33,620 bases of DNA from an uncultured Flavobacteriaceae bacterium (GCA_964648135.1 CAZYKN010000001.1:1-33620); one strand, 5' to 3'. Positions 10,792 to 29,918 are shown, counted from the first letter of the stretch. Numbers and translations: made by a program. Notes: generated from the sequence alone by a model not told the origin.

Positions 10792-10812
10792 CTCCATTTA
10801 ATAAACTGAGTC

Positions 10813-10845
10813 GACCTCTCACAGGTTTCTAAAACCTGTGAGGTC
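10813..10845. terminator. Bidirectional terminator hairpin shared by the convergent GH3 (+) and GH88 (-) genes
   Basis: gacctCTcacaggttt / cta / aaacctgtgaggtc forms a 10-bp plus 4-bp stem with a 2-nt bulge. Both sides are T-rich. It lies in the 84-nt gap between two convergent stop codons. Confidence 0.6.
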
Positions 10846-10875
10846 TATTACTATTTTTATTGTTTTAAATACTGG

Positions 10876-12144: not shown

Positions 12145-14543
12145 TGTTTACCTTCTTTAAGTTGTATTTCTTTTCCTTTATATTTAAATATTCCTGTTGT
12201 TCCTTTTGGTAGTATAATATCACCTAAAACTTTATTTTTATTTAATTTTAAATCTACTTCAATCTTTCCTTTTGGGTGAGGCATTACTGCTTTAAAATAA
12301 TCTAATCCGTTAAAATTAGGAGCAATCATTATTTTATTAAAGTGTTTTGACATTGGTGAAATACCTGCAATAATTTTTAAAAAATGATAATTTGGTGATG
12401 CCGACCAAGCATGACATTCAGATCTTGGTTCTATATCAGTTTCAGCAAAAGTGGTTAAACCTTGATCTAATTGATTAGTCCAATTATTTAATAAACTTAC
12501 ATATTTATCACCCATTCCTACTTTTTGCAACGCATTGAATAGGTAGAATTTATAATAAATGGTGGTTTGTATTAAACTTTTATCGTCCAATATTTTTTGC
12601 ATCATTGCTTTTTGTTCTCTTTTTGGAATTGCATCCGTTAAGATAGCCATAATATTAGTATGTTGTGAAAATTTTTGCTTGTTTGGTGTTTCGGCAAACA
12701 ACCCTTTTTCTTTAACATAACAGTTTTTTAAAACGCTTTCTCGAATTTTTTTTTCGAGTATTTTATATTTATTTGCATCTTCTTTATAACCCAAATCTGA
12801 AAACATATCAGCAGCATATTGTAAAGTTTTTACAAACTGAAGTGCAATTGAGGCAGAATACCCATCATCTGCACCATCAGGAATTCCGTTGTGAAAACCA
12901 GGACTCCAATCGGTAAAATTCCACCATTCCATTTTGGTTGGCATACCAGTTTTATCTACTTTATTAATCCACCAATTTAAAACCGCTTTCATTCCAGGAA
13001 TGTATTTCTTGGTAAATTCAGGATTATCTTTATACATATAATGATCGTGAATCATATTGACCCAAAGCAATGAATAGGTTGGAATAACTTGCACAATATA
13101 AGATGGAAATCGGCTTGCCGTTAATCCACTAGGTAAACGCGAATTATCGAACATTTCAATAGCTTTTTTCATTAATCTATCATCACCATCGACACTTAAA
13201 GACACCATTGCTTCAATTCTAGTATCACCAACATATTGCAACTGCTCATAATATGGATCAATATATCCTTCAACAGCAGAATTACGAAGTGTCAACCAAG
13301 ACGCATTCCAAATTTTAGTAAGGGTTTTATTATTAGTTTCAAATTTGGCATTTTCTTTAAATGGATAAGCAGTATAGACGTTATAATAATCATTAATAGT
13401 TAATGGTTGATCTTTTGTTTGAATATCTAATTGTATAAATCGAAAGGTTTTTTGACCAATAGGTTTAAAGCTTCTGTTTTTTCCTCCATCTGCCTCAATA
13501 ATATCATAATATCCTAAAATATGTTTTCCTTTTACTATATTTCTATTGCCTTTTTTCCAATCTTTATCATACATTGCTTCAGAATAGGTCATTTTTATAG
13601 TACTATTTTTTCCATTAGAAAAATTGATTATAGGATGACCAATAGTATGATGTAAATTATCGATTAAAATACTTGCTTTTGTGTTTGGAGGAATGGTAAG
13701 TTTTCCCGTTCCTTTGATAAAATTTTCATCTTTTTTAATACCAATACTTCGTCTAATACTCCCAAAGCGTTGTTTTGTTTCTTCCATAAACGGAATTGTT
13801 CTTGGCACGAGATACCAAGTACTTCCAAAAAGAAAACCTCTACCAACTGCAAATTCCACTGTCCCTAATTTTGGAGCAAGCCATTTAGAGTCGTCAAAGT
13901 TTTTTTCTTTCCAGCCCCAAGCGTGTTTTTTTGAGATTAATTTTTCTCCAGGTCCTGCTACATAATATCCTCGTAATGAATCGCTAACAAACGGAATACT
14001 TTTAAAACCTGTATCGTTTAAAACTTTCCATTTTGATGCTTTTCCTGTATTCAAATTTACTGCGTTGTTTTTATCGCCTTGTAAAATAAAAGCAGTTTGA
14101 AAGGTCATTGTTGATGCTTTTCGATACTCACCAAAATTAACAACTTCAACGGCGATTACATTTTTGCCAACTTGCAAATTTTTAGCAATATCAAGAGTTT
14201 CGTAACGATAATGATTAATATCTCCTGAGGAAGGTCCAGAAACCAAATATTTACCGTTAATATACAAACGGTAGCGATTGTCAGCAGAAATATAAATAAT
14301 AAATTTTTCTGGTTTAGTTGCTAGATCAAACGTTCTTCGAAATAGAAATTTACGAGAATCTAGCGTTGATTCTGTTGGATGTGTAATCCATTGCGATGTC
14401 CAAGCGTGTTTTAATTTAGTAAACTCTTTACCTTGATAGTTTATTTTTACATTAGATTCTTGAGCAAATATTTGTGTAAACTGTACTACTGTAAATAAGA
14501 TTAGTACGATTAAATTTTGAATTTTAAATTTAGATTTTTTCAT
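12132..14543 (-). CDS. GH78-type alpha-L-rhamnosidase, secreted
   Basis: 803 aa with a Sec signal (QIFAQES). It carries the rhamnosidase N-terminal-domain signature (IYISADNRYRLYINGKYLVSGPS...GKNVIAVEV). A six-hairpin catalytic region is present (ECHAWSASPNYHFLKIIAGI). Its ATG directly abuts the stop of the upstream lyase gene. Confidence 0.8.
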   Translation of the reverse strand: MKKSKFKIQNLIVLILFTVVQFTQIFAQESNVKINYQGKEFTKLKHAWTSQWITHPTESTLDSRKFLFRRTFDLATKPEKFIIYISADNRYRLYINGKYLVSGPSSGDINHYRYETLDIAKNLQVGKNVIAVEVVNFGEYRKASTMTFQTAFILQGDKNNAVNLNTGKASKWKVLNDTGFKSIPFVSDSLRGYYVAGPGEKLISKKHAWGWKEKNFDDSKWLAPKLGTVEFAVGRGFLFGSTWYLVPRTIPFMEETKQRFGSIRRSIGIKKDENFIKGTGKLTIPPNTKASILIDNLHHTIGHPIINFSNGKNSTIKMTYSEAMYDKDWKKGNRNIVKGKHILGYYDIIEADGGKNRSFKPIGQKTFRFIQLDIQTKDQPLTINDYYNVYTAYPFKENAKFETNNKTLTKIWNASWLTLRNSAVEGYIDPYYEQLQYVGDTRIEAMVSLSVDGDDRLMKKAIEMFDNSRLPSGLTASRFPSYIVQVIPTYSLLWVNMIHDHYMYKDNPEFTKKYIPGMKAVLNWWINKVDKTGMPTKMEWWNFTDWSPGFHNGIPDGADDGYSASIALQFVKTLQYAADMFSDLGYKEDANKYKILEKKIRESVLKNCYVKEKGLFAETPNKQKFSQHTNIMAILTDAIPKREQKAMMQKILDDKSLIQTTIYYKFYLFNALQKVGMGDKYVSLLNNWTNQLDQGLTTFAETDIEPRSECHAWSASPNYHFLKIIAGISPMSKHFNKIMIAPNFNGLDYFKAVMPHPKGKIEVDLKLNKNKVLGDIILPKGTTGIFKYKGKEIQLKEGKQCIK

Positions 14544-15383
14544 TTATTCTAAGCCTTTCGGTTTATTTTTAGTTACTTTAAAGTCATCATAATAACAGTA
14601 AACATCATGTTTTGGAGCCCAATCATCACCTTGACCACCATGAAAAGTAGAAAAATAAAATGAGTCTATATCTCCTAAAGGAGCTAAACGGTAACGTACT
14701 TTAGTATCATTTACTACTTTTTTACCATCTACCCAAACTTCCATAACACCATTAAATTTATTGGTATCGTTCATTTTAAGATGTTGCGTAATTCGGTACC
14801 ATTCGCCTGTTTTAAAAACGGAATTCATTTCTACAATATCTCCCCATTTGTGTTTCATATCCATATGATAAAAATAGAGAATAATAGCTCCTTTTTCACG
14901 CCACATATATCTAGCAGACCAACCTTCACCGTGATCTGGATGTATTCCACCTGTATATTTCTCGCCTCCACTTGTTAAACCAGGTAATTTTCCTCCTAAA
15001 GCAAAATCAAATCCTTTAGCAAATTTTAGGTAATAATCTAAATAATATTCATTAAATTTTGGCAATGGTTTATCAAATTGAATACCTCCTTGTTTAGGAC
15101 CAACAGCACCTTTTGGATATTTTACTTTGAGTACTTTACCGTGTTTAGTATCTTGCTCAATGCTTGCTTTATCTTCAACAATTTTCCAAGTTACTTTACC
15201 TACATCTTTTAATAAATTGGCATCTAAATATTTACCTACACTGTCTTTTTCAAAATCTAACTGAAAAACAATATTTGCATTAACTGTCTTGGCTGGTTCT
15301 GTTTTTTTAGTTGTAATAGTTTTTGTTTTACAAGAAACCATCAAAACTAAGAAAACAATAATACTATATTTTAAATTTTTCAT
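14544..15383 (-). CDS. Small jelly-roll polysaccharide-lyase-like lipoprotein (Pfam Polysacc_lyase/PF14099-type; PL13/14/20/28-like clan)
   Basis: 279 aa with a lipoprotein signal (LVLMVSC). Motifs are GGIQFD, LGGKLPGLTSGG, GWSARYMWREKGAIILYFYH and FSTFHGG. I recognise these from the heparinase-I-like lyase superfamily. The family call is from memory of motifs, not from a search. It sits next to GH78 and GH88. Confidence 0.6.
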   Translation of the reverse strand: MKNLKYSIIVFLVLMVSCKTKTITTKKTEPAKTVNANIVFQLDFEKDSVGKYLDANLLKDVGKVTWKIVEDKASIEQDTKHGKVLKVKYPKGAVGPKQGGIQFDKPLPKFNEYYLDYYLKFAKGFDFALGGKLPGLTSGGEKYTGGIHPDHGEGWSARYMWREKGAIILYFYHMDMKHKWGDIVEMNSVFKTGEWYRITQHLKMNDTNKFNGVMEVWVDGKKVVNDTKVRYRLAPLGDIDSFYFSTFHGGQGDDWAPKHDVYCYYDDFKVTKNKPKGLE

Positions 15384-15452
15384 TTTAATTAAATTTGTCT
15401 TAACAAAATTTCACTCATTTTTATAATTTCTTTAATCTTACTTAAAAAAATA

Positions 15453-17570
15453 TTATTTTTCTTTATTTAAATATTTAAACATAAACTTTTTGGTATTTTC
15501 TACTGCTTTTTTAGATTCAGGTAAAAAGTAATGTCCTTGCCAGACATGCCACATACCTTCATAAACATCTAGTTTAACCGTTTTACCTGCATTGTCTAAG
15601 TTACGATACATTCTTATCGCATTACTTAAAAATATTTCTTTACTACCAACTTGAATTAATGTTGGTGGAAATTCTTTAGTAAAATCACCATAAACAGGTG
15701 AAACATACGGATTTTTAAATTCGCTTTTTGGTGCATACGCCAAAGCAGCATTTTCTAAAAAATTTGGATTTATTAAAAGCGGATCATTATCTGCTAAAGT
15801 GTGATAACTATCGCCAATAGCATCAATATCTGACCAAGGAGACCATAAAACAACTGCTGCCGGTAATTTAATACCTAAATCTCTCATTTTTAACACGCTA
15901 CTTGCAGTTAAGCTACCACCAGCAGAATCTCCGTAAATGGCAATATTTTTGGCATCGTATTGTTGTAATAAACCTTTGTAAAATTGAATAACTTCAGCTA
16001 TAATTTTAGAAAATTTTGCTTGTGGTGCTAAGGTATAATCTATTGCAATAATACGCAAACCAGAATTTTCTGCAAGAGGTAGCATGGAAGCAAGAGTTAC
16101 ATCTGCATGTAGAACAACATAAGCACCACCATGAATATAAAAAATAACTTTGTTGCTTTTTTTATAATTTTTAGGTTTAATATCAATAGCTCTAATACCA
16201 CCAATTTTTATGGTGTCTATTTGTGGTTTATAAAAATCTTTTATAGGTTGTAAACCAGAAAGTACCAAACTATCTATATGGTTTTGAAACTTTAGCCATT
16301 CACTATGTGGAGCATCTCCTTTTGGTGTTGATGCTAAATTTCTGTTAGAGCGTTTAAAGGTTTTCATCATTTTTTGTGCTTCAGCAGAAATTGTCTTAGG
16401 TGCGTAAAATTCATCATGTAATGTTGTTAGCTCGTACCTAGTAGTTGGATTGTTTTTGACTAAATTATTACTCTCAGCTTCTAAGGTAACTTCTCCTTTA
16501 TCTGGAACGGTTTTAACTAATACATATTTGTTACCATTGTAATTAATTGTTTTAAAAGATACTCTTTTCTTTTTTTGTGTAGCTTTTATATTAATCCAAT
16601 TATTAGGAATGCGAATTTTTACGGTTAATGGCATATCAAAAATTTCATCTTGCATAGCATCTGTTAAGATATAGGTAATTGTATTTTTTTTATTTTTAGT
16701 TACTTTGAGTTTATGTGTTGCATATTCTTGTGCATATTTTGCTATATTAGGAAAAGTACCAATCCATAATTTATCTTCTTTTTGTTTGAGATAATTTAAA
16801 AATTCATCTGTAATTTTATGTGCTTTATCACTATTTACGTTATGAAAATGAACACTTCCCCAACCTCTGTAATAATTTATATCTTCTAAGGTAGCCGTTT
16901 TGTTTAATAAGGGTAATATATAATGATTTCTAGTACTATCATTTAAATAAATATGAGGATTAGAAATACTTCTAATTTGTTTAAAATCTATTTTATTTGC
17001 AGGATTAAGTAAACCAATAACACCACGACTTGCTATAAAATGTTTAGCAACTTCTTTAATATTACCTTGTCCCCAAGGGTAGGCATAGGTTATACATTTT
17101 TGCTTTTTTATATGTTTATTAACGGTAGAAATAGTCTTTTTTAAACGTTTTCTATATTTTTTTACTGTAGGATTTTTTTGATTTTCTTTAGGATGGTCAT
17201 ACCAATTTTGATCATCGTGAGCTTGTATTGCATTGCCTTGTTCTGCAAGTTCGGCAAAAAGACTCCAATTTTTTACATTCCATTTTTTTTCGGCTTCGGT
17301 AATGACAAACCAAGTGTATTTAAATCCATATTTTTTTTGCATTTTTTTCCAAAAAGGGATGTCTTGTTCGTTATTATCATCAATTGTAATAGTAAATGCA
17401 CTTAACTTATCATCATTCCAAAGGCAAACATTTGCATGGCCAATAATTGGTGACCAAATTTTTTCGGTTAGTTTAAATCTAGTGGCTTGTGGTGTTTCTA
17501 AAATAAATTTATCTTGAGAAAACAATTTTATTGAATATACTATTAAAATTATAAACAGAATTTTTTTCAT
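15453..17570 (-). CDS. Secreted two-domain esterase: N-terminal polysaccharide-deacetylase-like domain fused to C-terminal alpha/beta-hydrolase-fold-3 (HSL-type) esterase
   Basis: 705 aa with a Sec signal. The N-terminal half has a NodB-like DD motif (FTITIDDNN) and a His-rich motif (AIQAHDDQNWYDHP). The C-terminal half has the HGG oxyanion motif (IHGGAYV), the GDSAGG nucleophile elbow and a distal His (MWHVWQ). Confidence 0.75.
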   Translation of the reverse strand: MKKILFIILIVYSIKLFSQDKFILETPQATRFKLTEKIWSPIIGHANVCLWNDDKLSAFTITIDDNNEQDIPFWKKMQKKYGFKYTWFVITEAEKKWNVKNWSLFAELAEQGNAIQAHDDQNWYDHPKENQKNPTVKKYRKRLKKTISTVNKHIKKQKCITYAYPWGQGNIKEVAKHFIASRGVIGLLNPANKIDFKQIRSISNPHIYLNDSTRNHYILPLLNKTATLEDINYYRGWGSVHFHNVNSDKAHKITDEFLNYLKQKEDKLWIGTFPNIAKYAQEYATHKLKVTKNKKNTITYILTDAMQDEIFDMPLTVKIRIPNNWINIKATQKKKRVSFKTINYNGNKYVLVKTVPDKGEVTLEAESNNLVKNNPTTRYELTTLHDEFYAPKTISAEAQKMMKTFKRSNRNLASTPKGDAPHSEWLKFQNHIDSLVLSGLQPIKDFYKPQIDTIKIGGIRAIDIKPKNYKKSNKVIFYIHGGAYVVLHADVTLASMLPLAENSGLRIIAIDYTLAPQAKFSKIIAEVIQFYKGLLQQYDAKNIAIYGDSAGGSLTASSVLKMRDLGIKLPAAVVLWSPWSDIDAIGDSYHTLADNDPLLINPNFLENAALAYAPKSEFKNPYVSPVYGDFTKEFPPTLIQVGSKEIFLSNAIRMYRNLDNAGKTVKLDVYEGMWHVWQGHYFLPESKKAVENTKKFMFKYLNKEK

Positions 17571-17580
17571 AATATTTTTA

Positions 17581-18657
17581 TTAGATAGCGTTTCCTACAC
17601 CAATTATAATTGTAGATAAAATAATTACGGTCAGCCCTAACCATAAAGTTCGCATTGTTTTTTTAGAAACGCCTTTCCATTCTTTAAAGTACAAACCCCA
17701 AAGTGTACTAAAGATAATAATAAATGCCATATGTAAAGTCCAACTTGCAAATTCGTATTTTTTACCTAAAAAAGTAGTTCCCATACCGTAAAAGAAAAAT
17801 TGAAAATACCAAGTTACTCCACCTGCAATGGCCAACAAGTAGTTTTTTGATTTTTTGGGAATAGATTTATCTGTAAAATCACTAAAAGTTTTATTTTTAA
17901 AACTTAAAGAAATAGTCCAAATAAAATTAGTTAAAAAGCCACCCCAAAGTATCCAAACTATAACAGGATTGTTTTGAAATAAATTTTTTGTTCCCAATTT
18001 TAATGCTTCTTCGGCGATTGGTTTTCCTGCTGCCAAACCAAAAGCAAAACAGGCACTTAATATTCCGGAAATAGTAGCTATTATTAATCCTTTAGATAAG
18101 TTAAATTCGGCAACTGCGTCAGTTTGTTGTTCGCTATCTAAGTCTTTTTCTTTAAGCATTCCTGCTTTTCCAGCAATGGCAATCCCAACAAGGCTAATAA
18201 ATACACCTAACAAAACTACTTTACCACCATTTGTAGAAATTAAAGCAGGAAAAGTTCCATTATAAATAGGCGGAATTAATGTGCCAAAAGCTGCGGTAAA
18301 ACCCAAAGCAACTGCCATTCCTAATCCGATGCCTAAATACCGCATAGAAAGCCCAAAAGTTAAAGCACCAATTCCCCAAAGTACACCAAAAAGGAAGGTG
18401 TAAAATTTAGTTATGGTACTTGCGCCATTTAATACTTCAAATAAATTTGGTACGGTAAACCAAGCCATAATAATAGGTGCAAAAACCCAAGCCGCAAAAC
18501 CGAGTATGAGCCAAGAGGTTTCCCATTTCCATTTTTTTATCAGTTTAAATGGTATGTAAAAACTTCCTGCTGCAAACCCGCCAATTGCGTGTAATAATAG
18601 TCCTATTAATGCTCCCATATTTTTAATTTTATTTTTTTTGATGCTATAATTCAACAT
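17581..18657 (-). CDS. rhaT: L-rhamnose/H+ symporter RhaT (DMT superfamily)
   Basis: Polytopic membrane protein colinear with E. coli RhaT (HAIGGFAAGSFYIPFKLIKKWKWETSW; MRYLGIGLGMAVALG). The more likely start is ATG 18618 (MGALIGLLLH...). The ORF-track start 18657 adds 13 residues. Confidence 0.9.
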   Translation of the reverse strand: MLNYSIKKNKIKNMGALIGLLLHAIGGFAAGSFYIPFKLIKKWKWETSWLILGFAAWVFAPIIMAWFTVPNLFEVLNGASTITKFYTFLFGVLWGIGALTFGLSMRYLGIGLGMAVALGFTAAFGTLIPPIYNGTFPALISTNGGKVVLLGVFISLVGIAIAGKAGMLKEKDLDSEQQTDAVAEFNLSKGLIIATISGILSACFAFGLAAGKPIAEEALKLGTKNLFQNNPVIVWILWGGFLTNFIWTISLSFKNKTFSDFTDKSIPKKSKNYLLAIAGGVTWYFQFFFYGMGTTFLGKKYEFASWTLHMAFIIIFSTLWGLYFKEWKGVSKKTMRTLWLGLTVIILSTIIIGVGNAI

Positions 18658-18683
18658 TTTAAATTAAGCATTCTACATTATTT

Positions 18684-19646
18684 TTAAGCTGCTTCAAAAT
18701 CTTTTTTTAAGACTTTTCTAGCCAATGCCAATTCTTCTTTTGTAAAAGGTTTTGCATCAGATGCAGCTACTGCTCCTTTTAGTTCTTCAATATTTTTTGC
18801 TCCAGACAATACAGTTGAAACTCCTTTTTGATCTAATACCCATCGTAATGCTGCTTGTGGCATATTAGTAATGTCATTTCTTAATAAAAACTTAAATGCT
18901 TCCACTTGATCTATTCTTTCAGCTAATTCTTTACGAGAATAACGAGCGTTGAGCGTTCCTTTAGCAAAAATGGTATCTTTTGTAAAAACACCTGCTAAAA
19001 AACCATTAGCTAAACACTCTCTACCAAAAACACCTATTGGATATTCAGACAGTTCGTTAACTAAATTTTGTGCTTCTCTGTTCATTAAACTTAATACCAC
19101 TTGCACTACATCAATTTTATTTTCTTTTGCCCATTGTCTTGCCATATTTTCTGTTTGATTAAACATAGAAATAGAATGTGCTACAAAACGAACTTTTCCT
19201 TGTTTTTTTACTTGTTCGATACCTTCCCAAACATCATCGTTAATTTCGTCTGGAGAAAAAGGTGAATGAAAAAATAACACATCAATATAATCGGTTTGTA
19301 AGCGTTTTAAACTCTCTTCAACCGAATCAATAATTCTTGATTTGTAAAATAAAGATTTGCCTCCTTCAATACAAGGGTTTCTTCCAAATTTAGATGAAAT
19401 ATGAACTTTGTTTCTTCTGCCTTTTAAGGCTTTACCTAATACAATTTCGGCAACACCATCTTGTTTATCGGTACCGTATTGAGGTGCTGTATCGAATAAA
19501 TTAATTCCCATTTCAATACCTGCGTGAATGGTATTTATACCATCTTGCTCTGCAACGCCACCATAAACATTATTACCAAAAGCCCAAGTTCCTAAGCTAA
19601 TTTCACTAACTTCTAGGTTTGTTCTGCCTAATTTTCTATATTTCAT
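18684..19646 (-). CDS. Aldo/keto reductase, cytoplasmic, substrate unknown
   Basis: 320 aa. AKR signatures are MKYRKLGRTNLEVSEISLGTWAFG, DTAPQYG and LKRLQTDYIDVLFFHSP. The ATG overlaps the upstream stop (ATGA). Confidence 0.9.
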   Translation of the reverse strand: MKYRKLGRTNLEVSEISLGTWAFGNNVYGGVAEQDGINTIHAGIEMGINLFDTAPQYGTDKQDGVAEIVLGKALKGRRNKVHISSKFGRNPCIEGGKSLFYKSRIIDSVEESLKRLQTDYIDVLFFHSPFSPDEINDDVWEGIEQVKKQGKVRFVAHSISMFNQTENMARQWAKENKIDVVQVVLSLMNREAQNLVNELSEYPIGVFGRECLANGFLAGVFTKDTIFAKGTLNARYSRKELAERIDQVEAFKFLLRNDITNMPQAALRWVLDQKGVSTVLSGAKNIEELKGAVAASDAKPFTKEELALARKVLKKDFEAA

Positions 19647-20344
19647 TTAATAAATTGACTTTTTAAATTATTAATTCTCTCAGTTGCTACTTCTAAAAAT
19701 ATTTTTACGATTTTTTTACCTTGATAAAAAGTTGCTGTTCTTGGATCTTCGCCAGAAACGGCATGTTTTTCTAAAGTTATTTCTTTGTTTTTTGGTAAAC
19801 ATTCTAAATCTACTGTTGTTGGTTCGTAGTATAATTGTATTGCCGTTTCTCCAATTGCAGAATGATTTGCAACTAATAAATTGTCTGGCAAAATATCAAA
19901 TTCGGCTAAAGCCCAAAAATGAATTTTAGAGTATTTTTTATTAAACTTTATAGCGGTATCTCTAAGAATTTGTAGATGAGGCTCACCTGCGTGACCTGAA
20001 AGTAAAATAATGATTTTAAAATCTTGCAGTATTAATTGTTCAAAATATTCTTCACAAATTTGTTTGATAATTCCTTCAGAAAATTCAATAGAATGTTTAG
20101 GAAAATTAACACCTGGATAGGAACTAATTAAATTAGCTGCTAAACTAATTGGAGGCAATACTAAACCACCATTTTTTTTGGCTAAATCTACACATAAATG
20201 ATGTGCTTTATGTGTATCTAAACCAGTTGGATTATGATTACCATGATATTCAATTGCTCCCCAAGGCAAATAAGCGATTGGTGTTTTTTCTTGAATTGCT
20301 TCAATTTGAATTGGCCGCAATTTATCGTAGAATCCCCAATTCAT
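19643..20344 (-). CDS. Creatininase/MftE/ArfB-family metal-dependent amidohydrolase-fold protein, cytoplasmic, substrate unknown
   Basis: The ORF track opens at TTG 20353. The ATG at 20344 overlaps the dioxygenase stop (TAATG). Family motifs are LPWGAIEYHGNHNPTGLDT and LLSGHAGEPH. No signal peptide. Confidence 0.7.
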   Translation of the reverse strand: MNWGFYDKLRPIQIEAIQEKTPIAYLPWGAIEYHGNHNPTGLDTHKAHHLCVDLAKKNGGLVLPPISLAANLISSYPGVNFPKHSIEFSEGIIKQICEEYFEQLILQDFKIIILLSGHAGEPHLQILRDTAIKFNKKYSKIHFWALAEFDILPDNLLVANHSAIGETAIQLYYEPTTVDLECLPKNKEITLEKHAVSGEDPRTATFYQGKKIVKIFLEVATERINNLKSQFIK

Positions 20345-21168
20345 TAGTCCCAATTTTTATGATAAATTAATGGATTCTGTTCTTCCTTATTAAGCAAATC
20401 ACCTATTTTTAAGGTTTTGAAATAGTCATCTGACAGTACGTTTTGTTTTCCGTTAAAGGTACTACCATCTGGCATAAATGCACAGGTCATTGCGTTTCGA
20501 GTATATGGAGTCATATTTACACCTGCGGCATGAATACATAATCCGTTATGAAATGAACAACTTCCTGCTTTAATAATAGAAGGTACTGGTTTTATATTTT
20601 TATACTTAGGATAAGCATCAAAAATATCGCCCATGTTTGCACCAATTCCAGGTTCGATAAAATCGGTATCGTGATTAGATTCTGGCATAAAATATAAACA
20701 TCCGTTTTGAAGTGTTACATCTTCTAAAGCAATCCAAATACTTAATGCTTCTCTGTGAGAAAAAGACCAAAAAGGGGTGTCTAAATGCCAAGCAGTTGCA
20801 TTTGCCCATGGTTGTTTTATTAATGATTGGTCGTGCCAAACACGAATACCATCAACTTGAGCTAAATCTGCTGCCATTTTACCTATTCGTTTGTCTAAAA
20901 TTAAATCTTTTACTTTGTCATCTGTCATCCAAAGATTGATAATTTGTGTAAATACTTTTCCGAAATAATCGGCATTTTTATTTATACCATCATTTTCTCC
21001 TGATTTTATTTTAGAATGTGGAAATTTAGTACCGTTTCTATTCTTAACTGCTTTATCTATAGTGTTTTTCCAAATACTTACTTCTTCAGGGTTTAAAAAA
21101 TCATCTACAATTAAAAAACCATTTTTTCGATACGATGCAATTTGTTCTTGGGACAAAATAGAGTTCAT
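20344..21168 (-). CDS. PhyH-family Fe(II)/2-oxoglutarate-dependent dioxygenase, cytoplasmic, substrate unknown
   Basis: 274 aa. Motifs are GFLIVDDFL, an HxD in AWHLDTPFW, ALEDVTLQNGCLYFMPESNH, and a distal His plus Arg in FHNGLCIHAAGVNMTPYTRNA. No signal peptide. It is the first gene of the minus-strand operon. Confidence 0.8.
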   Translation of the reverse strand: MNSILSQEQIASYRKNGFLIVDDFLNPEEVSIWKNTIDKAVKNRNGTKFPHSKIKSGENDGINKNADYFGKVFTQIINLWMTDDKVKDLILDKRIGKMAADLAQVDGIRVWHDQSLIKQPWANATAWHLDTPFWSFSHREALSIWIALEDVTLQNGCLYFMPESNHDTDFIEPGIGANMGDIFDAYPKYKNIKPVPSIIKAGSCSFHNGLCIHAAGVNMTPYTRNAMTCAFMPDGSTFNGKQNVLSDDYFKTLKIGDLLNKEEQNPLIYHKNWD

Positions 21169-21259
21169 TCAACTTATTTTTTAAATTTATAAATATATTT
21201 TTTATGTTAATGTATTACAATACCAATACACAATGTTAAATAGATTTAAGAAAATAGTT

Positions 21260-21276
21260 ATCCTGTGCTATCCTGT
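21260..21276 (-). promoter_or_regulatory. Second copy of the shared element (minus strand ACAGGATAGCACAGGAT), upstream of the dioxygenase-to-GH88 operon
   Basis: Read directly. It differs from 404..420 at one position (A for G). It lies 91 nt upstream of the dioxygenase ATG and 12 nt downstream of the regulator stop. Confidence 0.4.
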
Positions 21277-21288
21277 GAGCGGGTTAAT

Positions 21289-22323
21289 TCACACTGAATT
21301 TCTATCAATAAAAGTAAAATTATTTTTAAATTTTCCTTTTTTATTTTGAAGTATCATTTCAGCAACCAATTTACCCATTTGCTTAAAATCGGTACACATT
21401 ACAGTAATACCTAAAAGATTTTTTAAAGGGGTTTCATTATAAGAAATAACACCAATTTCTTTACCTAATACTAAATTTTTTTTTCGTGTTTGTTTTACTA
21501 AAAACACCAAATCTGTTTCGTCAATTACTATAAAACATTCTGGCACTTCAAACTCCATATCTTTATAAATTTCGTCGATAACTTCAAAATTAAAAAAGTG
21601 CTCCACACAAAACTTTTTAAAACCTTGAATAATGGGTTTTGGATATGGGTATTCTGATTTTGTAGGATACACTAAAATTAACTTTTTATATTTTGATAAC
21701 TTATCAATTCCTTTATTTAAAGCATCATAAATGTCTAATTTAAAATCTTGATAAATATTGATATAATTACCAGATATTTGAGGAATTTCATTATCTAATA
21801 AAATTAACTTATCAATAGGTATTTTTTTTATAGCTTTTATAATTTCGTTATTTGTTGAAATATAATTTTTTTTATCATCTTTAAAATGACTCATTATAAT
21901 ATAGTAATCATAACCTCCAAGATGTTTATTAATAAGGTTTAAGAAAAGGGACTCGTCGCAATGATAAATAAATAAATTAATATGTGCATCCATTCCCATT
22001 GAATCTACAAATGCATTGTATAACCGCATTTTATATGAACTCAATTTATTAATTAAAAAGAAAATATTAACTTTTGATATTAATTCAGTTTTAGCAGTAT
22101 AAAATCCTTTTCCTTTTACAGAAACAATAATTTTTTTTTCTTTTAATTGCCGATATGCTTTTTCTACAGTATCTCTAGATAAATAACAATCCTCACTTAA
22201 TTCGTTAATAGAAGGTATTTTCTCACCAATTTTTAAAGAACCATTTGAAATTTTAGCAATAATGCCGTCTATAACTTGTTTGTATTTTGGCTTACTCGAC
22301 TTTTCGTTAATAATTAAAAACAT
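21289..22323 (-). CDS. AraR-like chimeric transcription regulator (GntR-type winged-HTH plus LacI/periplasmic-binding-protein-like sugar sensor)
   Basis: 344 aa. The N-terminal region has a GntR-type HTH (KYKQVIDGIIAKISNGSLKIGEKIPSINELSEDCYLSRDTVEKAYRQLKEKKII). The remaining ~250 aa have alternating beta-alpha character typical of PBP type-I sensor domains. It is divergent from rhaEW and co-directional with the degradative operon. Confidence 0.8.
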   Translation of the reverse strand: MFLIINEKSSKPKYKQVIDGIIAKISNGSLKIGEKIPSINELSEDCYLSRDTVEKAYRQLKEKKIIVSVKGKGFYTAKTELISKVNIFFLINKLSSYKMRLYNAFVDSMGMDAHINLFIYHCDESLFLNLINKHLGGYDYYIIMSHFKDDKKNYISTNNEIIKAIKKIPIDKLILLDNEIPQISGNYINIYQDFKLDIYDALNKGIDKLSKYKKLILVYPTKSEYPYPKPIIQGFKKFCVEHFFNFEVIDEIYKDMEFEVPECFIVIDETDLVFLVKQTRKKNLVLGKEIGVISYNETPLKNLLGITVMCTDFKQMGKLVAEMILQNKKGKFKNNFTFIDRNSV

Positions 22324-22373
22324 TTGTAAGTTATTTAAGTCAAAGGAAAATAAAATTTTTATTAATCAAAATA

Positions 22374-22381
22374 CAAAATTA
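22374..22381 (-). promoter_or_regulatory. Candidate -7 box TAATTTTG (TAnnTTTG) for the regulator gene
   Basis: The plus strand reads caaaatta. On the minus strand this is an exact consensus match, 50 nt upstream of the regulator ATG at 22323. Confidence 0.35.
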
Positions 22382-22797
22382 TACTATTTTTTTAACTGTT
22401 GTCCAATAAAACATAAAAAATAGTTATGATTTTTGTGAGTATAATCTGTTTTTTTCGCAAAAGTAACAAAGAACGCAAATTTTGGATAAAAAGTATAAAA
22501 ATATTTGGTTACTATCAACATTATTAATCAGTGTTAAATTTAAAACCATTTTTTGAGTTTTAAATCGTTTTTTTTGTAAAAACTATTATTTTTTAACACT
22601 AGTGTTTTTAATAGTATTTTTGTTAAATAATTTAATCATTTGACTTAAATTTTTAAAGACATTCAAAAGAATTATTATTTCTTCATAATAAAAAGGCTTA
22701 TAAAATTACCTATTTTATAGAAAAAACATCAATTATTAATACTTTTTTAATGGGACAATAGAGAGTTTTTTTTAACATAGATATTTATAAAAAATTT

Positions 22798-22814
22798 ATC
22801 AGACAGTACAGGAT
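22798..22814 (+). promoter_or_regulatory. Degenerate third copy of the shared element (ATCAGACAGTACAGGAT) upstream of rhaEW
   Basis: The proximal half ACAGGAT is exact and the distal half is degenerate. About 11-12 of 17 positions match the other two copies. It ends 56 nt upstream of the rhaEW ATG. Confidence 0.3.
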
Positions 22815-22870
22815 ACAATTTACAAGACTTACAATTAATTTTACTTTTTAATTTTTATAATAGACATTTA

Positions 22871-24973
22871 ATGATTACTGAAGTAAAAAAATTTAAATTT
22901 GTTGATAATTTATGGGATAATGCAAAAGCAAAATCCTTAGAAGGAGATGAAATTGCTTTATTACTATATCGCTCAAATCTTTTAGGAGCCGACTTGCGAA
23001 TTACAAATTATGGAGGAGGAAATACCAGTTGTAGAACCATAGAAAAAGACCCTTTAACAGGTAAAGAATCCGAAATAATGTACATTAAAGGTTCTGGTGG
23101 AGATATTGGTAGTTTAAAAAGAAATGGTCTTGCAGGGTTATATGTAGATAAGTTAAGAGCTTTAAAAAATGTATATCGTGGTTTAGAACACGAAGATGAA
23201 ATGGTTGGTTTATTTAATCATTGCATATACGATTTGAATAGCAAAACCCCATCAATAGATACTCCTCTTCATGGATTATTACCTTTTAAACATATTGACC
23301 ATTTGCATCCAGATGCTTTAATTGCTATTGCAGCAGCTGCAGATGGAGAGAAAATTACCAAACAAATCTGGGGAGAGACAATGGGTTGGATTCCTTGGCA
23401 AAGACCAGGTTTTGATTTAGGATTACAAATAGAAAAATGTTTAAAAGAAAAGCCAAATATTAGAGGGCTAATATTAGGTAGTCATGGTTTATTTACGTGG
23501 GGAAATACGGCTTATGAATGTTATATGAACAGTTTGGAAGTTATTGAAATGGCATCTGAATATATAGAAAATAAATTAGATAGAAAGAAAATATTTGGAG
23601 GTCAAAAATTAGAGAGCCTATCAAAAGAAAATAGAAAAAAGCAAGCAAGTTTAATTGCTCCTCTATTAAGAGGTTTATGTTCAGAAGATAAACAAATGAT
23701 AGGTCATTTTACAGATGATAATGTGGTGTTAGAATTTGCAAATAGCTATGATTTAAAGCGTTTAGCTCCTTTAGGAACTTCGTGTCCTGATCATTTTTTA
23801 AGAACTAAAATCCAACCTTTGGTTTTAGATATAGATTCTGAATCTGATTTAACAGATACAGCATTTATTTTAAAGCAATTAACACCTGCTTTTGAGCAAT
23901 ACCGTAAAGAATATCTAGCGTATTACAACAGTTGCAAAAAAGATAAAAGTCCTGCAATACGTGATGCTAATCCTATAGTGATTATTTTTCCAAGAATAGG
24001 AATGTTCACTTTTGCAAAAAACAAGCAAACAGCTCGTGTAGCAAGTGAGTTTTATATTAATGCAATAAATGTTATGCGTGGAGCAGAAGCTATTTCAACA
24101 TACACCTCTTTACCAAGACAAGAAGCATTTGATATTGAATATTGGTTATTAGAAGAAGCAAAACTACAAAGACAACCAAAAGAACAACCACTATCAAGAA
24201 AAGTAGCTATCGTAACAGGAGCAAGTGGTGGAATTGGTAAAGCAATTGCTGACAAACTTATTCAAGAAGGAGCAAATGTGGTTTTTACCGATTTAAAAGA
24301 AAAAACGCTAAGAGAAGCAACCAAAGAATACAATACAGACACTGCTACAACTTCCCTTTGTGATGTAACTAATGAGGATTCTATAAAAAAAGCCTATAAA
24401 AAGGCTTGTTTAGATTTTGGAGGAGTTGATATTGTAGTGCATTCTGCTGGTTTAGCAATTTCTAAACCTTTAGAAGATACCACCATAAAAGATTGGGATA
24501 TTTTGCAAAATGTTTTAGTAAAAGGACAATTTTTAATGGCTAAAGAAGGTGTTAACATTATGCGAAAACAAAATTTAGGTGGCAATATTGTGAATATTGC
24601 AAGTAAAAATGGGTTAGTATCTGGACCAAATAATATAGCTTACGGAACGGCTAAAGCAGCGCAGCAACATATGACTCGTTTATTAGCTGCCGAAGTTGCC
24701 AAAGATAATATTAGGGTGAATACCATAAATCCAGATGGCGTTATTGTAGGTTCTAAAATTTGGGAAGGAGCATGGGCAGAAGGAAGAGCAAAGGCAAATG
24801 GAATTACTGTTGAAGAATTGCCTGCATTTTACGCTAAAAGAAATCTTTTAAACCAAATAATTTTGCCAGAAGATATTGCTAACGCCGTATTTACAGTAGT
24901 AAGTATTTTAGATAAAAGTACTGGAAATACCATTAATGTAGATGGAGGAATGGCAAATGCTTTTGTAAGATAG
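22871..24973 (+). CDS. rhaEW: Bifunctional L-rhamnulose-1-phosphate aldolase / L-lactaldehyde dehydrogenase (class II aldolase domain plus SDR domain)
   Basis: 700 aa. An N-terminal aldolase/adducin-like domain is fused to a C-terminal SDR (VAIVTGASGGIGKAIA; YGTAKAAQQH). This architecture matches the characterised RhaEW fusion. It sits directly upstream of the rhamnose isomerase and kinase genes. Confidence 0.88.
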   Translation: MITEVKKFKFVDNLWDNAKAKSLEGDEIALLLYRSNLLGADLRITNYGGGNTSCRTIEKDPLTGKESEIMYIKGSGGDIGSLKRNGLAGLYVDKLRALKNVYRGLEHEDEMVGLFNHCIYDLNSKTPSIDTPLHGLLPFKHIDHLHPDALIAIAAAADGEKITKQIWGETMGWIPWQRPGFDLGLQIEKCLKEKPNIRGLILGSHGLFTWGNTAYECYMNSLEVIEMASEYIENKLDRKKIFGGQKLESLSKENRKKQASLIAPLLRGLCSEDKQMIGHFTDDNVVLEFANSYDLKRLAPLGTSCPDHFLRTKIQPLVLDIDSESDLTDTAFILKQLTPAFEQYRKEYLAYYNSCKKDKSPAIRDANPIVIIFPRIGMFTFAKNKQTARVASEFYINAINVMRGAEAISTYTSLPRQEAFDIEYWLLEEAKLQRQPKEQPLSRKVAIVTGASGGIGKAIADKLIQEGANVVFTDLKEKTLREATKEYNTDTATTSLCDVTNEDSIKKAYKKACLDFGGVDIVVHSAGLAISKPLEDTTIKDWDILQNVLVKGQFLMAKEGVNIMRKQNLGGNIVNIASKNGLVSGPNNIAYGTAKAAQQHMTRLLAAEVAKDNIRVNTINPDGVIVGSKIWEGAWAEGRAKANGITVEELPAFYAKRNLLNQIILPEDIANAVFTVVSILDKSTGNTINVDGGMANAFVR

Positions 24974-25044: not shown

Positions 25045-26325
25045 ATGCAGTTAAAGAAACAACAAATAGCAGATTACAACAAGTCAAAAATAGCAAACCT
25101 TAATAATCAAACAGATTTTTTAGGAAACCTATTAGACAAAAAAGGATGTAATACCAATGCAATTATTCAAAAAATTGTAGATTTTCAAGTTGCTATACCA
25201 AGTTGGGCTTTAGGTGCTGGAGGCACACGTTTTGGACGTTTTTCTTATGGAGGAGAACCGTCTTCTTTAGAACAAAAAATAGAGGATATTGGTTTAATTC
25301 ATAAACTAACACAATCTGCAGGAGCAATTTCTTTACATATTCCTTGGGATATTCCAAAAGATTATAAAGCTATAAAAGAATTAGCAAATTCACATAATAT
25401 TTTATTTGATGCAGTAAATTCTAATACTTTTCAAGATCAAGCAAACGCAAAAGAAACTTATAAATATGGATCGCTTTCCAATATAAGCAAAGCGGTTCGC
25501 GATCAGGCAATTGCTCATAATAACCAAGTAATACAAATTGGAGAAAAATTAGGTTCTAAGAGCATTACTGTTTGGTTAGCTGATGGTTCAAATTTCCCAG
25601 GACAACAAAATTTTCAAACAGCATTACAAAACACACAACAATCCCTTCAAGAAATATATAAAACATTACCGAACGACTGGAGAATGTTTATTGAATACAA
25701 ACCCTATGAACCAAATTTTTACAGTACGGTAATTAGAGATTGGGGAACTTCACTAATGCTAGCTGAGGGATGCGGAGATAAAGCCTATACGTTAGTAGAT
25801 TTAGGACATCATCTACCAAACACTAATATTGAACAAATTGTTGCAACCTTAATGATGAAAGGTAAATTAGGAGGTTTTCATTTTAACGATAGCAAATATG
25901 GTGATGACGATTTAACCGTTGGATCAATAAAACCATACGCTTTGTTTCTTATTTTTAACGAATTAGTTTATGGAATGAGCAATAATAAAAATAATCCAGA
26001 TTTAGCTTGGATGATAGATGCAAGTCATAACATAAAAGACCCTTTAGAAGATTTATTACAATCAATAGATGCGATACTAATTGCTTATGCACAAGCACTT
26101 TTAATCAATCAAAATGAATTACGACAAGCACAGAAAGAAAATGATGTAACCAAATGTCAAGAAATTTTACAAGATGCGTATCGTACAGACGTACGTCCAT
26201 TAATTAAACAAGCAAGATTACAATCTGGAGGTGTTATTAATCCAATTGAGGCTTACCGTAATTTTAATGTAAGAAATCAGTTAATTAAAGAAAGAGGTTT
26301 AGATAATGTAGCAACAGGACTTTAA
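25045..26325 (+). CDS. rhaI: L-rhamnose isomerase (xylose-isomerase-like TIM barrel, Pseudomonas stutzeri/actinobacterial RhaI type)
   Basis: 426 aa. Motifs are IPSWALGAGGTRFGRF, DLGHHLPNTNIEQ and GGFHFNDSKYGDDDL. It is not the E. coli RhaA type. The operon context supports the call. Confidence 0.85.
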   Translation: MQLKKQQIADYNKSKIANLNNQTDFLGNLLDKKGCNTNAIIQKIVDFQVAIPSWALGAGGTRFGRFSYGGEPSSLEQKIEDIGLIHKLTQSAGAISLHIPWDIPKDYKAIKELANSHNILFDAVNSNTFQDQANAKETYKYGSLSNISKAVRDQAIAHNNQVIQIGEKLGSKSITVWLADGSNFPGQQNFQTALQNTQQSLQEIYKTLPNDWRMFIEYKPYEPNFYSTVIRDWGTSLMLAEGCGDKAYTLVDLGHHLPNTNIEQIVATLMMKGKLGGFHFNDSKYGDDDLTVGSIKPYALFLIFNELVYGMSNNKNNPDLAWMIDASHNIKDPLEDLLQSIDAILIAYAQALLINQNELRQAQKENDVTKCQEILQDAYRTDVRPLIKQARLQSGGVINPIEAYRNFNVRNQLIKERGLDNVATGL

Positions 26326-26326
26326 T

Positions 26327-27715
26327 ATGAAAAAACAGAAAGTAACAGCAGTTTTTGATATTGGTAAAACCAATAAGAAATTCTTTTTATTTGATAAGGA
26401 TTTTCAAGAAGTGTATCGCGAATATTCTTGTTTTGAAGAAATTACAGATGAAGATGGTCATCCAACAGAAGATTTGCAACGCTTACAAAAATGGCTAAAA
26501 ACACGTTTTGATCGTATTTTAAAAACAGGAAAATATAACATTACAGCTATAAATTTTTCTACTTATGGAGCAAGTTTTGTACATTTAGATAAAAACGGAA
26601 AAGTACTAACACCTTTATATAATTATACAAAAAAAATCCCTCAAAAAATTTTAAATGAATTTTATGCCAAGCATGGAGGAGAAAAATTAATTGCTTGCGA
26701 AACAGCTTCACCTCAAAATGGAGCTTTAAATTCTGGATTGCAATTATATTGGATTAAAAAAACCAAACCAGAAATTTTTAAGCAAATAAAACATTCACTT
26801 CATTTTCCACAATATTTATCTTATTTATTTACAGGAATACCATTAAGCGAATTTACAAGTATTGGTTGCCATACCAATTTATGGAATTTTAAAGATAATA
26901 CTTATCATAAATGGATTATTGAAGAAGGTATTGACGAGGTTTTAGCACCAATAGTATCTACTAAAACCAGTATAAATATGACATATCAAGGTAAAAAAAT
27001 TAGAATTGGTATTGGTATTCATGATAGTTCATCTTCATTATTACCGTATGTCTTAAGTAAGAAAAAACCATTTTTATTGCTTTCAACTGGAACTTGGAGT
27101 ATTGCTTTAAATCCATTTAACTATGAGGTTTTATCTCCAAAAGATTTAGAAAACAATTGCTTAAATTTTATGCGTATTGATGGAAAACGTGTAAAAGCTA
27201 CTCGATTTTTTATGGGAAATGAGTATCGTGTACAAGTAGAAAAACTAAGTAAATTTTATAAAAAAAAATACGGTTATCATAGAAACATTCGTTTTAATAA
27301 AACATTGTATTTAAGCTTAATCAATAACCCAAAAATCTATTTTAAATTTGAAGGGATAACTTTAAAAAGAAAACCTATTTCAAAAACCGATTTAAAAAAA
27401 TTTGATACTTTTGAAGAGGCTTTTCATCAATTAATGATAGAATTAATGCAATTACAAGTACAAACTATAAAAAATGCAATTGGAAATAATAAAGAAATTA
27501 GACAAATATATATTGATGGTGGTTTTACAGATAACGATGTTTTTATTAAACTAATGTCACATTACTTTAGTGGTTACAAAATAAGAACTTCAAAATCTTC
27601 TTTAGGTTCAGCTTTAGGCGCTGCTATGGTAATTTCTGATAAAAATATTAATTCTAAATTTTTAAAAGAAAATTATAAACTGGAAAAATTACCACCATTA
27701 TTACTAACAAATTAA
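26327..27715 (+). CDS. rhaB: FGGY-family sugar kinase, predicted rhamnulokinase
   Basis: 462 aa. FGGY motifs are AVFDIGKTNKKFFLFD, GIHDSSSSLLP, LSTGTWSI and YIDGGFTDN. It lies between rhaI and lldD. Specificity is inferred from context. Confidence 0.8.
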   Translation: MKKQKVTAVFDIGKTNKKFFLFDKDFQEVYREYSCFEEITDEDGHPTEDLQRLQKWLKTRFDRILKTGKYNITAINFSTYGASFVHLDKNGKVLTPLYNYTKKIPQKILNEFYAKHGGEKLIACETASPQNGALNSGLQLYWIKKTKPEIFKQIKHSLHFPQYLSYLFTGIPLSEFTSIGCHTNLWNFKDNTYHKWIIEEGIDEVLAPIVSTKTSINMTYQGKKIRIGIGIHDSSSSLLPYVLSKKKPFLLLSTGTWSIALNPFNYEVLSPKDLENNCLNFMRIDGKRVKATRFFMGNEYRVQVEKLSKFYKKKYGYHRNIRFNKTLYLSLINNPKIYFKFEGITLKRKPISKTDLKKFDTFEEAFHQLMIELMQLQVQTIKNAIGNNKEIRQIYIDGGFTDNDVFIKLMSHYFSGYKIRTSKSSLGSALGAAMVISDKNINSKFLKENYKLEKLPPLLLTN

Positions 27716-29916: not shown

Positions 29917-29918
29917 TT

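Follow-up and report, generated by a model that had tools for sequence, protein, structure and literature searches.

What reaction is carried out by three translationally coupled enzymes whose genes stand directly in front of a rhamnose transporter gene in a glycan-degradation locus of an uncultured Flavobacteriaceae bacterium? The locus lies in a stretch of 33,620 nucleotides (nt; GCA_964648135.1 CAZYKN010000001.1:1-33620), referred to here as the window. On its minus strand, a gene for a PhyH-family Fe(II)/2-oxoglutarate (2OG) oxygenase (20344-21168, 274 amino acids (aa); Pfam PhyH, 3.9e-30) is followed by genes for a creatininase-fold metal hydrolase (19643-20344, 233 aa from the ATG at 20344; Pfam Creatininase, 1.1e-23) and an aldo/keto reductase (AKR; 18684-19646, 320 aa; Pfam Aldo_ket_red, 5.7e-50). 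All three matches exceed the curated cut-offs and agree with the families and positions given in an earlier sequence-only reading of this DNA. The gene junctions, read directly from the sequence, are also as that reading described them. At the TAATG stop/start overlap (20342-20346) the hydrolase ATG shares its A with the last base of the oxygenase stop (...GAC TAA, 20344), a 1-nt overlap, the TTG at 20353, three codons 5′ of this ATG, being the mechanical open reading frame (ORF) start. The AKR ATG overlaps the hydrolase stop (AAA TGA) by 4 nt (ATGA, 19643-19646), and after the AKR stop at 18684 the rhaT gene begins 26 nt (start 18657) or 65 nt (start 18618) further on. From a comparison of related loci we infer, tentatively and at somewhat less than an even chance, that the trio is a module for the oxidative unmasking, most likely the O-demethylation, of a methylated 6-deoxyhexose imported by RhaT.

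To see how the oxygenase is distributed, we scanned one genome per species and found orthologues and relatives (58-92% identity) across Bacteroidota and neighbouring phyla, the count being at least 560 species genomes; orthologues at 60-90% identity occur in Flavobacteriia, Saprospiria, Sphingobacteriia and Chitinophagia. The best 80 loci were fetched, their ORFs were called and clustered, and the clusters were named with Pfam. Among the 55 of these loci that span at least 15 kb, a GH78/GH106 rhamnosidase gene lies within 10 kb of the oxygenase gene in 44, any rhamnose-linked gene (GH78/GH106, rhaEW/I/B or rhaT) lies within that distance in 47, and SusC/SusD is present in 34. The sequence-only reading had assigned the trio a cytoplasmic function tied to rhamnose or glycan genes outside the canonical routes, and had called for a neighbourhood survey that might find the trio mostly away from such genes; the survey found it linked to them.

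The partners of the oxygenase vary between lineages. In the marine layout (Flavobacteriaceae, Saprospiraceae, Lewinellaceae) the order is (GntR), oxygenase, hydrolase, AKR and RhaT, then esterase, lyase, GH78 and GH88, with the rhaEW-I-B genes frequently divergent. In the soil and freshwater layout (Sphingobacteriia, Chitinophagia) the order is SusC, SusD, oxygenase, a 278-aa TIM-barrel protein, GH106 and several GH28, with rhaEW-I-B frequently upstream. The TIM-barrel gene, present in 38 of the 80 PhyH loci, mostly overlaps the PhyH stop (e.g. L001 10816-11661 and L070 10821-11657); its product gave no NCBIfam match, only a sub-threshold Pfam AP_endonuc_2 match and no meaningful PDB sequence match, and appears from these searches to represent an unassigned family. 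In three further loci (L023, L029 and L045) the oxygenase heads a cluster of a 2-hydroxyacid dehydrogenase, an aldehyde dehydrogenase, a GH43-like gene, an SDR, a second (AP_endonuc_2) TIM barrel and an HpcH aldolase fused to two cupin domains, which, judged by these families, may encode a non-phosphorylative deoxysugar route. A Flavihumibacter locus has the order GH29 fucosidase, RhaT, oxygenase and FucI-like isomerase. Five Pedobacter and Pelobium loci (L040, L053, L067, L070 and L076) carry CBM9-like, NagA-like amidohydrolase and NagB-like genes directly 5′ of PhyH-TIM-GH106-GH28 and GH92 and PL8 lyase genes after it, which suggests that they target a different, amino-sugar-containing rhamnoglycan. 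In about eight loci a GH106, GH78 or GH28 gene stands directly 3′ of the oxygenase gene with no cytoplasmic partner, an arrangement that fits a self-sufficient unmasking reaction. In most loci the oxygenase has neither hydrolase nor AKR beside it, and evidently it can work without them. Because its linkage recurs with varying partners, the oxygenase, and not the trio, is the unit that has been evolutionarily kept beside rhamnosidases and rhamnose catabolism.

The hydrolase-AKR pair behaves in the opposite way. A metagenome scan seeded with the hydrolase alignment retrieved 36 close orthologues (at least 56% identity). Directly 5′ of the hydrolase gene lay a PhyH gene in 21/36 and a gene for a fusion oxygenase in 10/36, and the contig ended too early in 5/36; an oxygenase gene directly precedes each of the 31 close orthologues for which upstream sequence is available, in most cases overlapping the hydrolase gene or ending at most about 15 nt from it. 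The AKR gene was always 3′ of the close hydrolase orthologues in the metagenomic loci, and RhaT was encoded 3′ of the trio in 14 of the 15 PhyH-type metagenomic loci with room for it. The fusion oxygenase is a protein of about 770 aa in which an FA_desaturase-type membrane di-iron domain is joined to a Rieske ferredoxin and an NqrF-like FAD/NAD reductase domain; it carries the database annotation 'NqrF'. Five looked-up hydrolase members without a PhyH gene on the contig (L086, L087, L088, L093 and L094) all have the pair behind this fusion gene, starting 11-13 nt from its end. Compared with the window, the hydrolases of L086-L088 are 66-70% identical and the AKRs about 80%, and the 4-nt hydrolase/AKR overlap recurs in these three loci and in L094. 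L093 has the order fusion oxygenase, hydrolase, AKR and rhaT, then convergent FMN_dh, rhaB, rhaI and rhaEW. This is the layout of the window with the oxygenase alone exchanged, and it is decisive for the equivalence of the two oxygenases.

The fusion (L086 7667-9988; also in L087, L088, L093, L094 and L090-L092) keeps an identity of 65-78% between Flavobacteriaceae, Prolixibacteraceae, Mucilaginibacter and Opitutales. Mucilaginibacter, an Opitutales bacterium and a third genome have it in GH78/GH106 loci without the pair. The pair's dependence on an oxygenase is thus one-sided, since oxygenases also occur without the pair, which in its close form is confined to marine lineages. The trio is therefore no indivisible unit: the pair always stands behind an oxygenase, but the oxygenase is mostly found without the pair and its type varies. 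Because PhyH and the fusion are unrelated O2-dependent enzymes that occupy the same operon slot and are each rhamnosidase-linked, they most simply catalyse one reaction.

Distant relatives of the pair were found in other surroundings. Distant hydrolase-AKR pairs (33-44% and 46-60% identity, respectively) have thioredoxin reductase, Fur and Suf genes as neighbours and neither an oxygenase gene nor sugar genes nearby. In L130, L134, L137 and L139 (about 5300-8700) such a pair (about 44% and 50% identity) stands between a thioredoxin-reductase-like gene and Fur/SufC/SufB. The Fur/Suf-linked pairs hint at an ancestral general role of the pair. Other distant hydrolase members are found beside PhyH with an S1 sulfatase and GH127, beside GH29 or beside DUF4432. 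The metagenomic locus L151 (1086-5996) encodes a PhyH protein (53%), a creatininase-fold protein (43%), an S1 sulfatase and a GH127-like protein, with the sulfatase replacing the absent AKR.

The fusion connects the locus to MocDEF of Rhizobium/Sinorhizobium rhizopine catabolism, a fused homologue of which occupies the PhyH slot of the window in front of hydrolase-AKR(-RhaT). Its N-terminal domain is 52% identical to the product of the gene in the MocD position ('fatty acid desaturase family protein') on pRL11 of Rhizobium johnstonii 3841, and its middle domain matches the MocE family model (3e-31). On pRL11, genes for a LacI regulator and a TIM-barrel protein lie 5′ and genes for a MocE family 2Fe-2S ferredoxin and an FAD oxidoreductase lie 3′, an arrangement of mocDEF that PMC3538637 also describes. 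Rhizobial MocDEF is reported, by way of citing papers, to O-demethylate 3-O-methyl-scyllo-inosamine (PMC13434037; Bahar et al.). Because the enzyme type that displaces PhyH has this demethylase precedent, O-demethylation is the reaction that we favour for the oxygenase. A further likeness is the PF01261 TIM-barrel gene next to rhizobial mocDEF (PMC3538637), which parallels the TIM barrel beside PhyH in soil Bacteroidota. Orthology of these two TIM barrels was not detectable (E=5.5); the rhizobial protein matches the second Bacteroidota TIM family weakly (E=0.001). The two systems differ in that the window oxygenase is a soluble Fe/2OG enzyme with no sequence relation to MocD, and in that the rhizobial substrate is an inosamine whereas the window locus is linked to rhamnose glycans.

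The window oxygenase itself is a regular member of its superfamily. It scores 106.1 bits against PF05721 (cut-off 22) and covers profile positions 1-213 of 213, PhyH being its sole Pfam family. The HxD...H iron triad and the 2OG-binding arginine, which had been judged intact from the sequence alone, correspond to H128, D130, H213 and R224 and are invariant in 20 orthologues. An AlphaFold2 model (pLDDT 90.8) predicts a double-stranded beta-helix, and in Foldseek PhyH-like 2OG oxygenases take all of the top places. Among solved folds, SnoK/SnoN of nogalamycin biosynthesis (TM 0.74-0.80, 22% identity) come nearest to this model and are also the nearest PDB sequences; the next fold neighbours are MysH, GriE, EctD and proline hydroxylases, which act on small polar substrates, and PhyH itself ranks lower. 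SnoK and SnoN resemble the proposed enzyme in acting on C-H bonds of L-deoxysugars, and differ in that they tailor an anthracycline glycoside by carbocyclisation and epimerisation in a biosynthetic pathway, whereas the window locus is catabolic. The oxygenase has no homology to sugar O-demethylases of the P450 type, which act on 6-O-methyl-D-galactose, or of the MocDEF type, so that its link to these demethylase systems is one of position and analogy and not of family membership.

The hydrolase scores 84.3 bits against PF02633 (cut-off 31.3); its subfamily is marine and small (184 relatives at E<=1e-8). It has the fold of the creatininase-family enzymes (creatinine amidohydrolase, MftE, ArfB and IolN) and keeps E32, H34, D43, H118 and H161 of their metal ligands and catalytic histidine; these five residues and E166 are invariant in 17 orthologues. 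In the reference creatininase the metal ligands and the catalytic histidine are E34, H36, D45, H120, E122 and H178. The window protein has GHAGE where creatininase has GHYEN, and its second metal site is uncertain because the position of E122 aligns with a glycine. Its scores fall far below the NCBIfam equivalog cut-offs (creatinine amidohydrolase, 50.9 vs 235; MftE, 33.5 vs 172; IolN, 26.3 vs 245), and these scores together with the wrong genomic context rule out a true creatininase or MftE. The AKR scores 170.5 bits against PF00248 (cut-off 24) and has the tetrad D52, Y57, K86 and H127; its nearest solved relatives are IolS, YhdN and AKRs that epimerise deoxynivalenol (DON), and its gene always comes paired with that of the hydrolase. 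None of the three proteins, the AKR included, reaches the cut-off of any named NCBIfam model. By sequence they are best described as ordinary members, of unassigned specificity, of their large superfamilies, and the database labels found in such loci (phytanoyl-CoA dioxygenase, ectoine hydroxylase-related, creatininase, NqrF) are misleading.

We suggest that the module could work as follows. A secreted lyase, GH88, GH78 and an esterase would reduce an acetylated uronate-rhamnose glycan to monosaccharides, and RhaT would import rhamnose together with a rhamnose-type sugar whose cap blocks RhaI, RhaB and RhaEW. The cytoplasmic Fe/2OG oxygenase would then remove the cap through C-H hydroxylation. 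The most likely reaction would be O-demethylation of a 2-O- or 3-O-methyl-6-deoxyhexose, in which the hemiacetal would collapse to the free sugar and formaldehyde, and the freed sugar would enter RhaI/RhaB/RhaEW, encoded by the divergent genes, and then reach L-lactate dehydrogenase. The hydrolase and the AKR would be auxiliary, specific to certain lineages and dependent on the oxygenase step, and would presumably act by metal-dependent hydrolysis followed by NAD(P)H-linked carbonyl reduction of the oxygenation product or a side-product. Sugars of the required kind occur in glycans of both habitats from which the gene is known. Calcium spirulan has been described with a hexuronosyl-rhamnose repeat, and the acidic polysaccharide of Chlorella contains 2-O- and 3-O-methyl-rhamnose with glucuronic acid. 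Calcium spirulan contains 3-O-methylrhamnose and 2,3-di-O-methylrhamnose besides rhamnose and sulfate (PMC11339812), and titles and abstracts of several papers suggest 3-O-methylrhamnose in bryophyte, fern and charophyte glycans.

The closest functional parallel is the P450 demethylase cluster for 6-O-methyl-D-galactose of marine Flavobacteriia (Zobellia, Formosa), which performs a cytoplasmic oxidative O-demethylation of an algal methyl sugar and is encoded with glycan-degradation genes. Growth on the methyl sugar also requires a conserved auxiliary NAD-dependent dehydrogenase of this cluster, for which no physiological substrate is known and which is no formaldehyde detoxifier (PMC10033563; PMC9400963). 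We call the hydrolase-AKR pair auxiliary because of this parallel and because its close form never occurs without an oxygenase in front. The P450 cluster differs from the window in acting on another sugar, in using a P450 with ferredoxin and reductase, and in having an auxiliary Zn-dependent alcohol dehydrogenase where the window has an AKR and a creatininase-fold protein; its demethylase activity is characterised, whereas the window oxygenase is known here from its sequence. Detoxification of formaldehyde by the pair is attractive because few marine genomes have the ribulose monophosphate (RuMP) route, found in about 3.6% of them (PMC9400963). We found nothing in its support, the analogous alcohol dehydrogenase of the P450 cluster speaks against it (PMC10033563), and we keep it as only a possibility.

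Several points weigh against demethylation of a methyl-rhamnose. The literature that we searched holds no paper on this PhyH clade or on the module: a 2013 rhamnose-regulon paper mentions no dioxygenase, and a paper on PhyH in Verrucomicrobia concerns phytol only. The function of the clade is read entirely from genomic context. To our knowledge, no PhyH-family enzyme is a sugar O-demethylase, and the nearest structural neighbours of the window enzyme catalyse carbocyclisation and epimerisation rather than demethylation. If a methyl-rhamnose were simply demethylated to rhamnose, no hydrolase, AKR, TIM barrel or FucI-like partner would be required, but in most loci PhyH shows translational coupling to one of them. 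The function of MocDEF is supported by old genetic evidence known through citing papers. The pair may have a general role unrelated to sugars, given the Fur/Suf-linked distant pairs. Finally, the target could be another methylated sugar of these glycans, such as methyl-fucose or methyl-xylose, since one locus encodes GH29, RhaT, PhyH and a FucI-like isomerase.

O-demethylation was one of three chemistries put forward in the sequence-only reading, and the exchange of PhyH for a MocD/MocE-type enzyme has strengthened it. AtsK-like desulfation was weakened, because the oxygenase does not belong to the TauD/AtsK family, because most of its orthologues lie in soil and freshwater loci of a pectin type and because S1 sulfatases are encoded beside it in some loci; KanJ/KanK-like deamination gained no specific support. 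Desulfation belongs to a wider scheme of ring-carbon oxidation, in which the carbon bearing the ester or ether (for example in rhamnose-3-sulfate) would be hydroxylated, the substituent would leave as sulfate or methanol, the AKR would reduce the resulting keto-rhamnose back to rhamnose and the hydrolase would handle an intermediate. This scheme gives the AKR an obvious job, and AKR relatives of the DON 3-epimerase DepB type reduce ring ketones. AtsK, and a sulfoquinovose dioxygenase acting with a 6-oxo-glucose reductase, are precedents. Marine rhamnose glycans are usually sulfated, and the 33.6-kb window encodes no S1 sulfatase. AtsK/TauD dioxygenases also have the same cofactor set, and their logic of hydroxylating the carbon next to the leaving oxygen would apply to the window enzyme as well. 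However, they belong to another Pfam family (TauD, PF02668), to which the window oxygenase has no match, and AtsK/TauD chains are absent from its PDB sequence matches and from the listed top 50 fold matches. Most orthologues stand in soil and freshwater GH106/GH28 loci without an AKR, and S1 sulfatases are encoded beside the oxygenase in five loci and in L151, so that sulfatase and oxygenase do not exclude each other. The MocD-type di-iron enzymes that displace PhyH hydroxylate methyl or methylene groups, and the hydrolase is left without a role of its own. We therefore consider ring-carbon oxidation unlikely. A bolder combination, in which the PhyH enzyme and the MocD-MocE-reductase fusion would be interchangeable uncapping oxygenases of modified 6-deoxyhexoses in hundreds of glycan-degrading bacteria and the marine pair would finish the job, with oxidation of a ring carbon to a keto-sugar allowing sulfatase-independent desulfation or formaldehyde-free demethylation, seems to us rather improbable.

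A second alternative would split the trio into two independent units, the oxygenase acting on a rhamnose-side sugar and the pair replacing KduI/KduD in the conversion of the 4-deoxy-5-hexosulose uronate released by GH88 to 2-keto-3-deoxygluconate (KDG). The gene content of the window invites this idea. The GH88 gene (10876-12144) and the TRAP transporter, KdgK and KdgA genes (28825-33500) are present and KduI/KduD are not, so that the window lacks both of the steps leading from the unsaturated uronate to KDG. The separate kduI/kdgK/kdgA uronate route assumed in the sequence-only reading thus holds for kdgK and kdgA, which are in the window, but not for kduI, which like kduD is absent from it. 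Furthermore, a GH88 orthologue (52-58%) is co-conserved with the pair in L086-L088 and TRAP genes (58-78%) in L087, and soil loci with GH28 hydrolases, enzymes that yield no unsaturated uronate, lack the pair. AKRs are also known to reduce 2,5-diketogluconate, an analogue of the KduD substrate. On the other hand, the position of 31/31 close orthologues directly behind an oxygenase is unexpected for an unrelated function, and L093, L005 and Saprospiraceae loci have the pair with rha genes and rhaT and no GH88 within 10 kb. We know of no creatininase-fold isomerase. A KduI/KduD substitute is therefore as unlikely in our view as ring-carbon oxidation.

Thirdly, the module could convert a rare 6-deoxyhexose to L-rhamnose or another catabolisable sugar, either by SnoN-like radical epimerisation or by oxidation of an alcohol and re-reduction by the AKR with the opposite stereochemistry. 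The fold and sequence proximity of SnoK/SnoN agrees with this, as do the isomerase-type partners (TIM barrel, FucI-like) that accompany the oxygenase in other clades and the keto-reduction epimerisations performed by AKR relatives. The displacing MocD-type enzyme, however, is by precedent a hydroxylase or demethylase, one 2OG would be spent per turnover, which is costly, and the scarcity of rare 6-deoxyhexoses seems hard to reconcile with an enzyme found in at least 560 genomes; we regard epimerisation as quite improbable.

Least probable among the chemistries, and very unlikely, is a KanJ/KanK-like sequence in which the hydrolase would deacylate an N-acyl-amino-6-deoxyhexose, the oxygenase would deaminate it oxidatively to a keto sugar and the AKR would reduce the ketone. 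In its favour, it employs the whole trio, KanJ belongs to the PhyH family, the creatininase fold is one of amide hydrolases, and NagA-like and NagB-like genes lie just 5′ of the oxygenase gene in the Pedobacter-type loci. However, KanJ is absent from the 18 PDB sequence matches of the oxygenase (E<=0.01) and from the listed top 50 fold matches, the oxygenase comes first in the gene order and is mostly found without hydrolase or reductase, the PL14-like, GH88 and GH78 enzymes of the window target uronate-rhamnose and not amino-sugar polymers, and deamination is not expected of a MocD-type enzyme. Canonical rhamnose or uronate steps are excluded as functions of the trio, because rhaEW, rhaI and rhaB are separately present, as the sequence-only reading had noted, and no named NCBIfam cut-off is reached.

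The remaining genes of the window agree with a uronate-rhamnose glycan locus. A minus-strand run of genes with small or negative gaps spans 22323 to 10876, from a regulator to GH88. The regulator, with a GntR HTH domain and a C-terminal part of sugar-binding type (21289-22323; Pfam GntR, 2.7e-13), is encoded 120 nt upstream of the oxygenase gene on the same strand and recurs in the equivalent position in ten Flavobacteriaceae loci (L005, L006, L008, L009, L011, L012, L014, L100, L101 and L104). The trio precedes the rhaT and carbohydrate-enzyme genes, as had been claimed, but because of this same-strand gene it is perhaps not the first in the transcript and may not head the operon. Downstream of the trio, the RhaT-family sugar/proton symporter (17581-18657) is predicted by NCBIfam NF010024 at the equivalog level (471.9 vs cut-off 468), a specificity assigned by sequence; the start at 18618 is favoured because the match begins at residue 14. 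There follow genes for a CE4+esterase fusion (15453-17570; Pfam), a PL14-like lyase (14544-15383; Pfam and PDB sequence match), a GH78 rhamnosidase (12132-14543; Pfam) and a GH88 unsaturated glucuronyl hydrolase (10876-12144; Pfam and PDB sequence match), all on the minus strand and separated by gaps of -13 to 69 nt. Their four N-termini look signal- or lipoprotein-like, whereas those of oxygenase, hydrolase and AKR, judged by eye, do not have a signal-peptide look, in agreement with the cytoplasmic location first proposed. The lyase is related by PDB sequence match to PL14 alginate/glucuronan lyases, and the GH88 protein matches GH88 of Pedobacter heparinus (E=3e-105). The esterase combines a CE4-like polysaccharide deacetylase domain with an Abhydrolase_3 domain of the hormone-sensitive-lipase type; in Maribacter and Aureibaculum loci its N-terminal part is present alone (about 375 aa). 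SusC, SusD, an FG-GAP/UnbV protein and GH3 are encoded upstream in the window.

The plus strand carries rhaEW (22871-24973), which scores above the NCBIfam cut-offs, and rhaI (25045-26325) and rhaB (26327-27715), whose best NCBIfam matches are below cut-off; the Pfam architecture agrees for all three. An FMN-dependent L-lactate dehydrogenase gene (27854-28876; Pfam architecture) follows, and TRAP transporter, kdgK and kdgA genes are encoded on the same strand. The mechanical ORF of the L-lactate dehydrogenase lacks about 40 N-terminal profile positions and overlaps that of DctP by 52 nt (27854-29916 for the two), which suggests that the starts of both ORFs are mis-set and that the true DctP start is probably an internal ATG. 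Between the regulator gene and the divergent rhaEW lies a very AT-rich, ORF-free gap of 547 nt (22324-22870), unusually long given the compactness of the locus. A perfect inverted repeat, TGTATT-N8-AATACA, lies in the 120-nt gap between regulator and oxygenase genes (21211-21230) and was considered as a possible operator. Without mismatches it occurs once in the window; when up to 2 mismatches are allowed, matches are not enriched (10 observed, 7.7 expected), and none occurs upstream of rhaEW, so that no shared operator emerged. A scan of 10700-22900 for sigma-70 promoters and terminators gave counts equal to those of shuffled sequences and is uninformative for Bacteroidota. The nearest public relative of the locus is an uncultured Lutibacter metagenome-assembled genome, in which the genes stand in the same order and the oxygenase is 92% identical.

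Two new findings are the most useful: the hydrolase-AKR pair depends one-sidedly on an oxygenase, and in front of the pair PhyH can be exchanged for a MocD/MocE-type enzyme. Methylated or otherwise capped rhamnose occurs in cyanobacterial, green-algal, bryophyte and bacterial glycans, and its removal is poorly known. One example is known of a glycan locus that encodes the oxidative removal of a sugar cap in the cytoplasm, namely the P450 system for 6-O-methyl-galactose, which is also the sole characterised bacterial removal of a methyl ether from a glycan sugar that we found in the searched literature. The hydrolase-AKR pair recalls the auxiliary dehydrogenase encoded in the P450 cluster and raises the question of what clean-up follows oxidative sugar demethylation. 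If oxidative unmasking is the correct reading, the Fe/2OG version and the MocDE-fusion version would be new and widespread variants of this strategy, and they would explain how aerobic Bacteroidota and Verrucomicrobiota use 'indigestible' capped sugars of the pectin, spirulan or ulvan type.

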